Shown one piece after another: positions 12,922 to 20,957 of a stretch of 32,000 bases of DNA. This DNA is from Candidatus Baldrarchaeota archaeon. GTDB taxonomy: Archaea > Asgardarchaeota > Baldrarchaeia > Baldrarchaeales > DXJG01. The stretch is taken from positions 75,513 through 107,512 of the forward strand of contig DXJG01000007.1 in the NCBI GenBank assembly GCA_019056805.1, in the 5' to 3' direction. The position numbers and the translations under genes are program-made. Each line of letters starts with the position of its first letter. Position 1 is the first letter of the stretch. Under the pieces are notes generated by a model. That model had not been told where the DNA came from and did not search any database. It saw nothing but the letters and a program-made list of their open reading frames with translations.

Positions 12922-13656
12922 ATGATTATTGATGACTTTTTCGAAGGAGTTATGAATTTACTTAAAAAAGTTAAAGAAACCCAAAAAGAAGTTATGCTTA
13001 AAGTAGCAGAACTCATAAAAGACGTACTTAAGGAGGATAAATTGATACATATATATGGATCTGGTCACTCACAGATATTAGCACAAGAGGTATTCTACCG
13101 AGCTGGAGGCTTAGTACCGATTAATGCGATGCTTGATCTAGGAACCTCAGTTTACGCTGGAGCCTTAAAGAGTACATCAGTTGAGAGACTACCTGGTTAT
13201 GGTAAATTGTTATTAGATTACTATCAAATTGAGAAAGGAGACTTACTTATAATAGTATCTAGCTCGGGTATAAATGTTGTTCCGGTCGATCTTGCTTTGG
13301 GAGCAAAAGAAAGAGGAGCAACCGTGGTTGCAATAACTTCTATAGAATTTTCTAAGTCGTCTCCAGCAAGACATTCTTCTGGAAAGAAATTGTATGAAGT
13401 AGCGGACATTGTAATTGATAATTTAGTCCCACCGGGAGATGCTTTATTATCTGTTCCTGGGATAAAAACGAAAATGGCACCAGTATCTACGATAATAAAC
13501 TCTGTGATTCTTCACTCGATACTAAGCATGGCAGCAAAGATATTAGCTGATGAAGGAATCGAACCTCCAGTTTGGTTAAGTGCAAATGTCCCAGGAGGAG
13601 ATGAATTTAATAAAGCGTACGTAAAAAAATACAAGTATCGGATTAAAGCCCTTTAG
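12922..13656 (+). CDS. single-SIS-domain sugar-phosphate isomerase-like protein (UPF0309/SIS_2 type)
   Basis: GSGHSQILAQE, YRAGGL, IVSSSGINVVPVD, VAITS, DNLVPPGDA, SANVPGGD. Start moved to ATG 12922 (GGGAGTGG upstream), 244 aa. Confidence 0.85.
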   Translation: MIIDDFFEGVMNLLKKVKETQKEVMLKVAELIKDVLKEDKLIHIYGSGHSQILAQEVFYRAGGLVPINAMLDLGTSVYAGALKSTSVERLPGYGKLLLDYYQIEKGDLLIIVSSSGINVVPVDLALGAKERGATVVAITSIEFSKSSPARHSSGKKLYEVADIVIDNLVPPGDALLSVPGIKTKMAPVSTIINSVILHSILSMAAKILADEGIEPPVWLSANVPGGDEFNKAYVKKYKYRIKAL

Positions 13657-13680
13657 ATACCGCATTCATAATAATTAGAT

Positions 13681-13700
13681 AAAAGTAGCTTCCTACTTTT
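13681..13700. terminator. stem-loop downstream of the SIS gene (possible terminator)
   Basis: Perfect inverted repeat AAAAGTAG-CTTC-CTACTTTT starting 25 nt after the SIS stop and followed by a pyrimidine tract. The stem is AT-rich and weak. Confidence 0.35.
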
Positions 13701-13777
13701 TCTCTCTTAAAACCTATTTATTATTCTTGAGAATCAAAAAAATATTTGAGGGCTGAATCAAAAGGACATGTCACATA

Positions 13778-13814
13778 TTCGATGATGAAACCTCATTCAG
13801 TTTTCATTATCGAA
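13778..13814. terminator. 13-bp imperfect inverted repeat downstream of the EIIA gene (possible terminator/RNA hairpin)
   Basis: TTCGATGATGAAA (13778-13790) pairs with TTTCATTATCGAA (13802-13814) with one mismatch (G-U if read on the + strand). Lies in the convergent SIS/EIIA gap. Confidence 0.35.
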
Positions 13815-13852
13815 AATATTATGATGTAATTATAAGAGGAGTTAAAACGAAT

Positions 13853-14326
13853 TTAGAGTTTTTCTAGTGCTTCTTTTATATGTTGGTATAATTTATCCAC
13901 AGTTTTTGCTTTTCTCATTTTTTTAATGTTTTCTTCTTTTTGTAGGAATTTTGCCAATTGAGCAATTGCTTTTACATGTGATCTTTTGTCAGTTGTCGTG
14001 AATCCAATTATTATATCTACAGGATCGTTGTCGGGGTTTCCAAAGTTTATTGGATTTTGTAATCTTATCAAAGCTAGTGCTGGTTTCTTGGCACCTTCTT
14101 CTGGTCGGGCATGTGGCAATGCTATCCCCTTTGTTATTACGATATATGGACCCATTTCCTCAACGGTTTTTATCATTGCTTCAATATATTTTGGCTCCGC
14201 TGCATCTATTTTCACTAAAATTTCACCAACTTTGATCACAGCATCTTTCCAGTCCGATACTGGAACATCTATGGCTATAGCTTCTTTCTTTAGGAGATCT
14301 AATAAACTGAATTCTGCTGTACTCAT
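13853..14326 (-). CDS. PTS enzyme IIA, stand-alone (fructose/mannitol/ascorbate-type EIIA_2 fold; UlaC-like)
   Basis: GPYIVITKGIALPHARPEEG with phospho-acceptor His72; L..PINFGNPDNDPV. 157 aa; GTGAG upstream of the ATG. Confidence 0.92.
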   Translation of the reverse strand: MSTAEFSLLDLLKKEAIAIDVPVSDWKDAVIKVGEILVKIDAAEPKYIEAMIKTVEEMGPYIVITKGIALPHARPEEGAKKPALALIRLQNPINFGNPDNDPVDIIIGFTTTDKRSHVKAIAQLAKFLQKEENIKKMRKAKTVDKLYQHIKEALEKL

Positions 14327-18623: not shown

Positions 18624-18650
18624 TGCGGTAGAGTTCATGAGGCGAGTACT

Positions 18651-19178
18651 TTGATTAATATTTATGACTACAGGTTGTTAATTCTCGTTTTAATTGGTTT
18701 TATATTAATTAAAACTCGAGAAATTTATAAGGAAAGGAAAAATTTCAACTCACTAAGAAGAGAGAGAATTTATTACTCTTTCATCCTAGCTAATGCTCTG
18801 AAAGAAACTAAGATATTAAAAAAAGCCAGCTTAACTACTAATGATGTTGAAGTCCTTTTAGAGGCATTTGATAAACTTCCTGAAATAAAGAGCGTAAAAA
18901 CGCTTAAAAAAGCTGTTCAAATATACAAGACATATGTAGCAGAACATCCTACTGTTCATGATGATAAAAAAATTATGAGGCAAAAAATCATTATACCTTT
19001 GATGAAAAAAATCATTGAGCTCTTTACAATTATTGACCCTGAATTATATAGATTAGTTGAAAGAGAAGAAAGTATGTATATTAAGAGAAAAGTTAAACCT
19101 AGAATTTATATCCCTTCTATCCTAGAGGAGATCATTGAGGTCTCATTATCTCGCTCCGAGGTACAGAAAGCTAGCTAA
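18651..19178 (+). CDS. hypothetical protein with a single N-terminal membrane anchor
   Basis: 175 aa, TTG start with GAGG upstream, 27 nt after the EIIB stop. Hydrophobic LLILVLIGFILI followed by a basic, helical body; no recognised motif. Confidence 0.6.
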   Translation: MINIYDYRLLILVLIGFILIKTREIYKERKNFNSLRRERIYYSFILANALKETKILKKASLTTNDVEVLLEAFDKLPEIKSVKTLKKAVQIYKTYVAEHPTVHDDKKIMRQKIIIPLMKKIIELFTIIDPELYRLVEREESMYIKRKVKPRIYIPSILEEIIEVSLSRSEVQKAS

Positions 19179-19195
19179 AATTATAATTTAATCTT

Positions 19196-19882
19196 CTATT
19201 CTAAACTTTTTGCTATTTCAATAATATCTTTGAGAGAGTTTACTACATGCTCTGCTACTTCCCGTGCTTCTTCCGCTCTTTCTTTTCCTAAACCTCTTAT
19301 AACTAGTATTGTTGGTATGCCTATACTTGAGGCGACTTTAATTTCATCGGGTATACTTGAGACCAGTAAAAGGTTCTTGTTACTAAGCCCTATTCTCTCT
19401 ATTACAGTCTTAAGAAATTCTTTGCTAAAACCTCTCATTATGTTAGTGTTTTCTTCGATAAAAACATCATGAAATATGTGAGCTAGCCCTAATGCTATAA
19501 TTTTTTGCCATTGTTTTACTGGAGGGCCAGATGTTACTACGTATAGTTTTAAACCTAGATCTCTAAGATTTATCAATGTTGGCATGGCATCTGGATAAGC
19601 TATAAGGTAAGCTGAGCTGGTTTGTCTATAAGCTTGAACGCCTGCTGCTATGATTCTTGCATCGTACTTTAAGCCGAATGTTTCTAAAAGAAGATCAAAG
19701 TGTTTAGGATAATGATCGCCGTATTTGCGTACTATATCATCAAGTACCTTGTAAGCAACTACAGGATCTATCGGGAAACCCTCAGCTACCATGGCTTTGA
19801 TCGCATTCATTCTTGCAGCACTAAGTTGTAAAGTTGCATCGTAGAGAGTATCCTCAAGACCGAACAATATGGCTTTTTTCAT
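19196..19882 (-). CDS. HAD-superfamily subfamily IA protein (archaeal TIGR02253/PH1655-like) with degenerate catalytic motifs
   Basis: Family-like cap and core (ARMNAIKAM, KYGDHYPKHFD, AAGVQAY, GPPVKQWQKI), but motif I reads FGLEDTL instead of FDLDDTL and motif IV reads VSSIPDE instead of VGD...D. The ATG lies 1 nt after the upstream stop, with a GGTGA RBS. Confidence 0.85.
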   Translation of the reverse strand: MKKAILFGLEDTLYDATLQLSAARMNAIKAMVAEGFPIDPVVAYKVLDDIVRKYGDHYPKHFDLLLETFGLKYDARIIAAGVQAYRQTSSAYLIAYPDAMPTLINLRDLGLKLYVVTSGPPVKQWQKIIALGLAHIFHDVFIEENTNIMRGFSKEFLKTVIERIGLSNKNLLLVSSIPDEIKVASSIGIPTILVIRGLGKERAEEAREVAEHVVNSLKDIIEIAKSLE

Positions 19883-19883
19883 T

Positions 19884-20957
19884 TTATTTCACCACCTTAC
19901 TAAGTTTAGTTGGTTTATCAGGATCTAAACCTCTTAAAACCGAAAGATAATAGGCAAAAAGCTGTAAAACAGGTACATAAATAATTGGAGAAAACACGCC
20001 TGGAAATTTTGGAAGCGATATATTAACATCTGCAATAGGTACGGTTATTTGAGCATCATTAATAAGCATTATGGGTGCATCAAAACTTTTCAACTTGCTA
20101 ATAACCTCTTTAACGGGTTCGACTCCGAACTCACGGTGTGCAAGCACTATGATAAGAGTCTCGGGACCTATCAATTGCATTGGTCCATGGAGAAACTCTC
20201 TTAATGCGAATCCCTCTGAAAACATATTACATGTCTCTTTAATTTTTAAAGCTCCTTCAAGAGCCAAAGGATAAAGAGAACCACTACCTAAAATAAATAT
20301 ATTGTTACTTCTAACAAACTTCATAGCAACCTCTTTAATAATTTCATTAACTTGAGAAATTACATTTTCTACCATTGTAGGTGCATTATTAAGAGAATTC
20401 ATTAATTTTCTATATGTCTTAATGTCAATGGTTTTTGAAATATATGCTAATTCGGTTGCTAGCATTGAAAGCACAAAAAGTTGCGCTGAGTAGGTTTTTG
20501 TTGCAGCTAAAGCACGTTCCTCACCTGCATGCGTTAACAAAACCGTATGAGCTATGTTCGCCAAGGTGCTTTGAGAATTATTTGTGACACCAACAACGTA
20601 GATACCCTTAGACAAACTAGCTCTGACTGCCCTTATTACATCAATGCTTTCACCAGACTGACTAATAGCAATCAAAACAGCTTGTTTGATTTGTTCGGGA
20701 AGCCAAGAGATAAACTCAGAGGCAGGTATTACAGTTGGATAAAAACCCATCAATTTGGAAACAGCATACTGAAAAGATAAGCCAGCATGATAGCTAGTAC
20801 CTGAACCAATAACGTAAAGCAAATCACTAAATCTCAGAGCAACTTCATTAGCAACAACTTTAATAGAATGTTTACTTTCCTTAAGAGTCTCTTCTAAAAC
20901 ACATGGTTCCTCGTAAATTTCTTTTATCATAAAATGAGAATATTCTTTGGAAGCCAT
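19884..20957 (-). CDS. double-SIS sugar-phosphate isomerase/deaminase (GlmS isomerase domain without glutaminase; GlmD/AgaS/FrlB-like)
   Basis: HFMIKEIYEEP, GSGTSYHAG, AISQSGES, GEERALAATKTYSAQL, EGALKIKET, EFLHGP, GLDPDKP. No N-terminal Ntn glutaminase domain. Confidence 0.9.
   Translation of the reverse strand: MASKEYSHFMIKEIYEEPCVLEETLKESKHSIKVVANEVALRFSDLLYVIGSGTSYHAGLSFQYAVSKLMGFYPTVIPASEFISWLPEQIKQAVLIAISQSGESIDVIRAVRASLSKGIYVVGVTNNSQSTLANIAHTVLLTHAGEERALAATKTYSAQLFVLSMLATELAYISKTIDIKTYRKLMNSLNNAPTMVENVISQVNEIIKEVAMKFVRSNNIFILGSGSLYPLALEGALKIKETCNMFSEGFALREFLHGPMQLIGPETLIIVLAHREFGVEPVKEVISKLKSFDAPIMLINDAQITVPIADVNISLPKFPGVFSPIIYVPVLQLFAYYLSVLRGLDPDKPTKLSKVVK

Follow-up and report, generated by a model that had tools for sequence, protein, structure and literature searches.

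How does an archaeon come to hold a complete sugar phosphotransferase system, a machinery found mostly in bacteria, and what might it take up with it? The question is raised by a stretch of 32,000 nucleotides (G000:C15:75513-107512; hereafter the window, by which the whole stretch analyzed is meant) from a metagenome-assembled genome (MAG) of 1.92 Mb in 18 contigs, with a GC content of 35%, a completeness of 91% and an estimated contamination of 3.6%. The reading that we consider likely is that the window carries an intact phosphoenolpyruvate (PEP):sugar phosphotransferase system (PTS) of the L-ascorbate (L-Asc) family on an 8.7-kb island in a Baldrarchaeia-like Asgard archaeon, that the donor was Njordarchaeales-like and that the substrate is more probably an amino sugar than ascorbate. 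Protein families were called with Pfam and NCBIfam, and NCBIfam bit scores are quoted against the cut-off of each model. The window contains no N, and neither a tRNA nor any Rfam family was matched in it.

All five components of a PTS are encoded, each as a separate gene. Enzyme I (EI; 14501-16252, plus strand, likely start ATG at 14528; PF05524, PF00391 and PF02896; TIGR01417 495 bits against 342) has its HPr-binding, mobile His and PEP-binding domains, with His193 in SALSHFAII and Cys506, and 12 aligned Asgard EI sequences show no variation at the catalytic and PEP/Mg-binding His, Cys, Arg, Glu and Asp positions. HPr (16269-16541, plus strand; PF00381, E 2e-26; TIGR01003 88 bits against 48) carries His17 in GLHARP, and in a hand comparison with the B. 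subtilis sequence the position of the regulatory Ser46 reads Val. EIIA, of the ascorbate/mannitol type (PTS_EIIA_2; 13853-14326, minus strand; Pfam E 6e-38), has His72 in LPHARP, and EIIB, of the ascorbate/galactitol type (PTS_IIB; 18288-18623, plus strand), has Cys21 in TICGVGMGSS. Both motifs align with the solved chains of S. mutans RmpA (3bjv) and RmpB (3czc) and with 3oxp, and both proteins miss the NCBIfam ascorbate IIA and IIB equivalog cut-offs (117 bits against 187 and 33 against 138). The permease, an EIIC of the UlaA/SgaT type (16889-18199, plus strand; PF03611, EIIC-GAT, E 8e-93), scores 430 bits against 380 with NF006919, the model named 'PTS ascorbate transporter subunit IIC', and its closest solved structure is E. 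coli UlaA (4rp8; E 4e-40, residues 18-419, 141 bits).

From left to right, the nine genes of the cluster encode a SIS enzyme (forward), EIIA (reverse), EI, HPr, EIIC, EIIB and an orphan frame (all forward), a HAD phosphatase and a second SIS protein (both reverse). An earlier reading of the DNA, made from the sequence alone, had placed the same nine genes at these positions, in this order and orientation, had described five separate components with intact phosphoryl-transfer residues and had assigned the permease to the L-Asc family, and in all of this it was right. It had also called the system stand-alone, which holds for the cluster and fails for the genome, where contig C18 carries a second EII of the mannose family. 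The genome holds only one EI and one HPr, both on the island. As judged from the conserved residues, PEP would phosphorylate His193 of EI, the phosphoryl group would move to His17 of HPr, His72 of EIIA and Cys21 of EIIB, and in the last step it would be placed on the sugar brought in through the EIIC permease. Two gaps are likely promoter regions of the island, the 347 bp between HPr and EIIC (16542-16888) and the 174 bp between the divergent EIIA and EI genes (14327-14500).

The cluster is an inserted genomic island, because its site is empty in two related genomes and a 225-bp repeat marks its ends. For comparison we used three congeners, including G006 and G007, and the same-order genome G005 (96% complete), the four being 82-96% complete. 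In G006 and G007 the window segments 9550-12589 and 21159-23508 are present and contiguous at 81-82% nucleotide identity, in the gene order rSAM-DASS-AOR-Fer4 and with proteins 83-90% identical to those of the window. There, the convergent genes for a DASS-family anion symporter and an aldehyde:ferredoxin oxidoreductase (AOR) end 10 bp apart; here, they end 8.7 kb apart. In a DNA search of the three congeners and G005, no part of window positions 12590-21158 was found in G006 or G007. Searches for EI, EIIC-GAT and a mannose (Man)-family IIC-IID found none of them in any of the four genomes. G005 has AOR-Fer4 without an adjoining DASS gene, and the site is not polarized by it. Host DNA thus flanks the island on both sides, with the DASS gene on the left (10812-12599, plus strand; TIGR00785 315 bits; 83% identity over 595 aa to G006/G007) and, on the right, AOR (21318-23129, minus strand; 89% identical to the congeners) and its polyferredoxin partner (23081-23494, minus strand).

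The ends of these two host genes make up the direct repeat. Its left copy (12447-12669) consists of the true 3′ end of DASS and a decayed remnant of the 3′ end of AOR, and its right copy (21159-21383) of a decayed DASS C-terminus followed by the true 3′ end of AOR. The copies, of about 225 bp, match over 228 columns at 75% identity (blastn, E 9e-33), and a three-way alignment of both with the empty site of G006 was made. The decayed DASS fragment in the right copy (~21144-21302) corresponds in blastx to DASS residues 541-593, that is, 53 codons at 51% identity with one stop. Neither an integrase nor a transposase is among the nine island genes, and the composition of the island lies within the host range. 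On this reading, the insertion between the two convergent host genes would postdate the divergence of this lineage from its sequenced congeners. It probably took place when circular DNA recombined with the DASS-AOR junction, so that a copy of the junction now stands on either side; a single crossover between the chromosome and circular DNA bearing a homologous junction would produce such a duplicated target. Whether the decayed halves are a host duplicate or donor DNA was also compared, and the comparison decided for neither.

The genome that carries the island is, judged by its marker proteins, that of an Asgard archaeon nearest to Baldrarchaeia. A DUF5814 helicase at window positions 3442-6027, 7 kb from the PTS cluster, belongs to archaea-only clusters, and all named relatives among its best 120 are Asgard archaea (84-95% identity to metagenomic relatives, 61% to a cluster labeled Baldrarchaeia and ~47% to other Asgard classes). 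The same contig encodes a Gtr1/RagA-type GTPase 20 kb upstream of the window (C15:55821-56234, 95 bits), and contig C17 a full-length eukaryote-like actin (459 bits). The helicase, the GTPase and the actin together argue for an archaeal, Asgard host, in agreement with the non-halophilic, low-GC archaeon that had been proposed. The archaeal small-subunit rRNA (RF01959) and PolD (PF03833) had no match in the genome, to which we attach little weight in a MAG that is 91% complete. The edges of the cluster had been named as the places to check for a chimera, and the contig is not chimeric there. Tetranucleotide use of the cluster falls inside the genome range (r 0.956; 10th-16th percentile, the 10th among 8-kb chunks). 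Logan contigs from four runs, each of a different study, contain the stretch with zero differences, and a single contig of run X4, covering 12355-12865, bridges the left junction. No RNA run is among the runs listed for the stretch.

Few Asgard archaea carry such genes. Protein searches with EI and EIIC-GAT covered 400 Asgard species genomes, and a full-length or near full-length EI was found in 15 of them, including this one. The carriers comprise six of the seven f24 family members (41-59% identity), six genomes in f9 (~36-41%) and one in f8; family f4 has a shortened copy, and in the congeners and G005 the EI query matched only PEP synthase-like proteins. For EIIC-GAT the count is 11 of the 400 genomes, confined to this one, f9 and f24. 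Beyond this set, an exhaustive profile-free search of 1.84 billion representatives returned a single cluster above 50% identity to the window EI (62%), with the next at 43%. In genome contigs, a single-protein EI search found no relative, and among the matches listed by an alignment-based search, identities were 33-39% and almost all matches were bacterial. In the EI tree the window protein falls in a clade with the f24 proteins (UFBoot 99, SH-aLRT 98), where it groups with G286 and P0001, the 62% cluster (99/97), and the f9 and f8 proteins stand elsewhere, among named bacterial sequences. The tree places the window EI as sister to or within f24, and nesting within f24 is the favored placement. 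By the same tree, no fewer than three unrelated lineages of EI are present in Asgard archaea, and with carriers limited to 15 of 400 genomes this indicates that a PTS entered the phylum several times.

Three of the other loci recovered in these searches are of a different make. In G058 of family f9, a different PTS (L121, 6075-17089) has its own EI and HPr with an EIIA_2, a IIB and a 525-aa EIIC-GAT, next to a BtpA/SgcQ-like protein, a Zn-dependent dehydrogenase, a class II aldolase, a DeoC/LacD aldolase, a UPF0047 protein and a HAD protein, a gene set that resembles the gat/sgc clusters of E. coli. The shortened f4 copy (G003, L015/L123) is a 393-aa EI-like frame with only the PEP-binding half (query residues 220-577), possibly a natural truncation. 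The second-closest EI cluster (43%), from a Thermoprotei MAG (RLF24050; L143/L144), belongs to an archaeal PTS of the lactose/cellobiose family with the order ceramidase-like gene, EI, HAD, HPr, double-SIS, EIIC (PF02378), IIB, IIA (PF02255) and DUF7916.

The history of EIIC is, by the trees, partly different from that of EI. The nearest relatives of the window EIIC, at 78-86% identity, are metagenomic, one of them labeled Njordarchaeia. It lies in a 35-row clade (SH-aLRT 98) that contains all six named archaeal sequences (Asgardarchaeia, Infirmifilum, a Thermoprotei MAG, Thermosphaera, Desulfurococcus and Thermococcus sp. EP1) and no named bacterium; the Infirmifilum branch also holds a cluster labeled Thermofilum pendens, and the sister of the clade is a Thermoanaerobacter/Caldanaerobacter/WS2 group. 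One contig (L155) shares with the island EIIC at 85% identity, HPr at 80%, EIIB at 77%, the single-SIS enzyme at 69%, EIIA at 65% and a homolog of the orphan frame at 42%. The M20 peptidase and YjbQ of that contig are only ~41% identical to the best matches in this genome. Over Njordarchaeales-like Asgard archaea in general, identities to the island genes are 59-86%, against ~41% for housekeeping genes. Since the L155 M20 peptidase falls in a 90% cluster labeled Njordarchaeales and is 53-68% identical to f24 genes, f24 is probably a Njordarchaeales lineage. The PTS genes are much more similar than the rest of the two genomes would lead one to expect, and their site is empty in the congeners. 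Both observations point to transfer between Asgard lineages, and the proximate donor was most likely another heat-loving, Njordarchaeales-like Asgard lineage. The sequence-only reading had suggested that the cluster may have been acquired from bacteria. The EI and EIIC trees and the L155 identities favor an archaeal proximate donor instead, and bacteria become a plausible source only for an earlier step, because the sister of the EIIC clade is Thermoanaerobacter/Caldanaerobacter.

What the system imports is suggested by the enzymes encoded beside it. The first gene of the island encodes a single-SIS enzyme (SIS_2) of the UPF0309/NagS family (12877-13656, plus strand, likely start ATG at 12922; PF13580, E 2e-42; NF002805 302 bits against 135). 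It matches PDB 3cvj and 9eol, the latter being NagS (SCO4393), at E ~1e-46 to 4e-44, and in the alignment to 9eol it keeps the NagS-essential H53, R64, E94 and D179, plus N228. In Streptomyces coelicolor, NagS is an N-acetylglucosamine 6-phosphate (GlcNAc-6P) dehydratase related to the MurNAc-6-P etherase MurQ, an activity confined to Streptomycetaceae, and membership in UPF0309 says nothing about the reaction catalyzed (PMC12680351). The last gene encodes a double-SIS protein of 357 aa (19884-20957, minus strand) that corresponds to the isomerase half of GlmS (NF001484 281 bits over GlmS residues 248-598). In an alignment with E. coli GlmS it retains K485, E488, H504, K603 and the S347-Q348-S349 phosphate site. 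It starts at GlmS residue 248, without the glutaminase domain, and no glutaminase open reading frame (ORF) adjoins it; it is therefore not a full GlmS. It falls below the equivalog cut-offs of the SIS-type deaminases (NagB-II 146 bits against 430, GlmD 126 against 580) and is closer to GlmS isomerase domains than to either. Because the glutaminase half is missing, as in SIS-type GlcN-6-P deaminases, the protein is a probable hexosamine-6-phosphate deaminase/isomerase. The genome has another GlmS-like gene, on contig C9. Next to the double-SIS gene is that of a TIGR02253-like phosphatase of the HAD superfamily (19196-19882, minus strand; PF00702 and PF13419; TIGR02253 127 bits, under the cut-off of 170).

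These partners recur with related permeases. EIIC, EIIB and SIS_2 genes are adjacent in Thermoanaerobacter, and all three lie within the clusters of Thermococcus sp. EP1 and L155. SIS_2 recurs in f24 at 68% identity, next to a different EIIC type, and in both EP1 and f24 a NagA-like amidohydrolase gene adjoins SIS_2. The window, L155, EP1 and L161 all have an adjacent gene for GlmS or a GlmS-like protein, with a full GlmS following EIIC-EIIB in a Thermoprotei MAG. With a NagS/UPF0309-type SIS enzyme and a GlmS-isomerase-like deaminase as conserved partners, we give roughly even chances to an amino sugar or N-acyl amino sugar as the substrate, with ascorbate well below. The phosphosugar delivered by the PTS would probably go to the NagS/UPF0309-type enzyme, and the GlmS-isomerase-like deaminase would lead to fructose-6-phosphate.

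The ninth gene, orf175 (18651-19178, plus strand; 175 aa), is a conserved orphan that matches no Pfam or NCBIfam family. Homologs with 70, 61 and 42% identity, and those of f24 with 21-27%, are without exception located in PTS clusters and were seen in Asgard clusters only. The predicted structure (pLDDT 89) has one N-terminal membrane helix followed by a helical bundle. A fold search with this model returned no solved PDB relative and, in AFDB, only its own family, automatically named 'DUF4129', and complex prediction with HPr, EIIA and EIIB scored 0.00, without a verdict either way.

The second permease of the genome lies on contig C18 (L162:7903-13746) and consists of EIIA-man, IIB-sorbose and a fused IIC-IID of 547 aa, the last not found in the three congeners or G005 and present in f24. 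The cluster also holds a 47% paralog of the island SIS_2, a neutral-ceramidase-like gene and a NagA-like amidohydrolase that is one gene away from the SIS_2 paralog, across the fused IIC-IID gene. Because the genome has one EI and one HPr, those of the island would serve the mannose-family EII as well. A pair of Man-family and Asc-family EIIs is also found on one contig of an Asgardarchaeia MAG. Also on contig C18 (L162:5983-7722), a 579-aa protein combines a NosD/beta-helix region with a C-terminal RING finger (Prok-RING_1, zf-RING_2) and a weak Vps23-core match, a mix unusual for an archaeon.

Several observations weigh against the reading given at the outset, in its account of the genome and the transfer as well as in its account of the function. 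The names Baldrarchaeia and Njordarchaeales depend on the labels that submitters gave to related proteins, and an AU test does not reject a monophyletic f24 without the window EI (p 0.15). At the right junction each of the four runs gives depth with no bridging contig listed, Logan contigs being short. One other Logan contig of run X4 departs from the window after position 12693, PTS are mostly bacterial, and the source is a MAG with some estimated contamination, so that the contig might be thought bacterial, mis-binned or chimeric where the cluster ends. We find this barely credible, since the Asgard-only helicase, the RagA GTPase and the AOR share the contig, two congeners keep the gene order of the flanks on both sides at 81-82% nucleotide identity, the junction repeats are made of host gene ends, the composition of the cluster fits the genome, and the runs of four studies hold the identical stretch, with X4 itself also supplying the contig that bridges 12355-12865. 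The repeat bears on a different alternative. Its copies are about equally distant from the host and from the congeners, so that gain and loss are inseparable from the site alone, and the cluster could be ancestral in the genus and have been deleted in the congeners by recombination between the repeats, with no recent transfer. Such recombination would yield the exact single junction of G006 and G007, the copies are old or divergent (75% identity) and not polarizable, and the island is host-like in composition. We nevertheless hold this to be unlikely: G005 and all three congeners are without detected EI, EIIC-GAT and Man-family IIC-IID, the PTS genes are 65-85% identical to those of an organism whose other genes reach only ~41%, the EI groups with or inside the EIs of another family, and a duplicated junction needs some earlier insertion anyway.

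On the side of function, homologs of NagS at ~26-36% identity to it are inactive on GlcNAc-6P (PMC12680351), the proposed substrate draws on the neighboring genes only, and phosphotransfer in this archaeal clade is deduced from conserved residues alone. No regulator gene is recognizable among the island genes, a point that can be cited for the view that the proteins form a regulatory phosphorelay of the PTS-Ntr or DhaM type and not a sugar importer, or that the island is a silent passenger. That view is improbable given a full-length EIIC and an EIIB with its catalytic Cys, free of stops, two EII complexes that rely on a single EI and HPr, and phosphosugar enzymes linked to the permease genes in several lineages. 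NCBIfam, for its part, names the EIIC 'ascorbate' with a score over the equivalog cut-off, and UlaA is the closest solved structure. Its residues H135, H194, D314 and Q139 are ligand contacts, and the first three are kept in our alignment. The cluster might thus be a true L-ascorbate PTS, a functional ortholog of E. coli UlaABC. We judge this very improbable, as the similarity to UlaA is low (141 bits), Q139 aligns with Trp, and from Thermoanaerobacter to the archaea this EIIC clade keeps a UPF0309 SIS enzyme as its partner, to which the island adds a GlmS-like isomerase. In addition, none of the UlaG, UlaD, UlaE and UlaF families is represented among the nine island genes, a count that extends to the island only and includes no genome-wide ula search.

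Known systems share some features with the island and differ from it in others. E. coli UlaABC (SgaT/SgaB/SgaA, TC 4.A.7; 4RP8/4RP9) has the same separate EIIC-GAT IIC, CGxGxGSS IIB and LPHARP-bearing PTS_EIIA_2 IIA, likewise fed by EI and HPr; unlike it, the island is without ulaDEF and ulaG genes and only distantly similar in its permease, is partnered by SIS enzymes and a HAD phosphatase, resides in an archaeal host and probably has a different substrate. The permeases of T. pendens, EP1 and Desulfurococcales MAGs are 55-61% identical and in the same clade. Thermococcus sp. EP1 (GCA_001317345.1, L158) has a complete cluster with EI, HPr, EIIA, EIIB, UPF0309 SIS_2 and a GlmS-like SIS protein, but it belongs to a different phylum, and the window EI, of the f24-type Asgard clade, is 36% identical to that of EP1; orf175 was seen in Asgard clusters only. 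In the Thermoanaerobacter/Caldanaerobacter operon (L160), the nearest named bacterial relative (EIIC 55-57%), the same EIIC-EIIB-UPF0309 trio is present with a PRD/Mga-type regulator that has fused IIB and IIA and with use of the general EI and HPr of the cell, whereas in the island EIIA is a separate protein, EI and HPr are encoded alongside it, and a PRD protein is absent. The island SIS_2 is in the same UPF0309 family as NagS (SCO4393, 9EOL) and keeps its essential residues; NagS, however, is a GlcNAc-6P dehydratase confined to Streptomycetaceae, and the membership of the archaeal protein is at the level of the family only.

The fructose PTS of Haloferax volcanii is, to our knowledge, the only archaeal PTS with experimental support. 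Like the island, it is a complete bacterial-type PTS in an archaeon and is viewed as horizontally acquired; it differs in being of the Fru family, in its halophilic host and in having 1-phosphofructokinase and a class II aldolase where the island has SIS enzymes. It comprises PtfABC, PtsI and PtsH (Pickl et al. 2012, via PMC7997004 and PMC12525153). Archaeal PTS have been characterized in haloarchaea and are also known from the Thermofilum pendens genome (PMC2405797, PMC2678158). The mannose-family set that the sequence-only reading named for Thermofilum is an incomplete account, as an L-Asc-type EIIC is annotated in T. pendens. Such EIICs are likewise already labeled by automatic annotation in Infirmifilum, Desulfurococcus, Thermosphaera, Thermococcus sp. 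EP1 and Njordarchaeia and Asgardarchaeia MAGs.

The AOR at the right edge of the island has counterparts near PTS genes elsewhere. AOR genes adjoin PTS genes in L159 (an Asgardarchaeia MAG), L111 (G286) and L142 and lie ~2.3 kb from HPr in L119 (G069); in L159, the AOR and ferredoxin, 66% and 64% identical to those of the window, directly follow EIIC-EIIB. Because the AOR here is host DNA older than the island, the link may reflect shared neighborhoods in the donors rather than function. An assignment of the AOR as GAPOR was rejected, and it is a generic member of the AOR family.

A few further features of the contig were recorded. Within the window, 6238-9438 (minus strand) encodes a 1066-aa protein with a clostripain (C11) peptidase and a carboxypeptidase-regulatory-like domain, unmatched in the 20 kb examined of G006:C146. 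A 415-aa ORF without a family (25572-26819, plus strand) occupies the lowest-GC part (28-31%) and is 59% identical to the gene at the matching place in G006. At the right end, 31324-31999 holds an IS605 OrfB/TnpB-like fragment (173 aa, PF01385) and an overlapping frame that leaves the window, and the contig reads N just beyond, at C15:107513-107678. Upstream of the window, L147:8710-13234 (C15:64222-68746) encodes two tandem membrane H+-pyrophosphatases of 697 and 727 aa, followed by a 363-aa ORF with a weak LAGLIDADG match.

It is important to consider what this locus adds, given that PTS in archaea are already known and the accepted view of the PTS mechanism is left unchanged. What it adds is that the host is proven, that the insertion site is clean and that there is a lead on the substrate. 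A complete PTS in an Asgard genome matters mainly since the only transporter survey published for these archaea (2021) found zero PTS proteins in five Asgard genomes (PMC7997004). In the literature searched, there was no paper describing a PTS in Asgard archaea, Njordarchaeales included, and nothing relevant on the substrate of the Thermoanaerobacter-type EIIC, so that the proposal of a system undescribed in this lineage stands. With its site empty in two congeners and its junction duplicated, the island is an unusually clean and datable case of the transfer of a cluster between Asgard classes. A broader view, which we offer as possible though doubtful, is that the EIIC-EIIB-UPF0309 module is an uncharacterized PTS pathway shared by and exchanged among thermophilic archaea and Thermoanaerobacter-type bacteria for the import of a substrate other than ascorbate. 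If so, the substrate would perhaps be an N-acyl hexosamine or a related cell-wall or Maillard-type sugar, it would be processed by the NagS/MurQ-like SIS enzyme, the GlmS-like deaminase and possibly the recurrently linked AOR, and the Asgard module would have gained the membrane-anchored, helical orf175 in place of the bacterial PRD regulators. The only characterized relative of the UPF0309 enzyme, NagS, was described in 2025, and the link between this EIIC clade and UPF0309 offers a concrete lead to the function of both.

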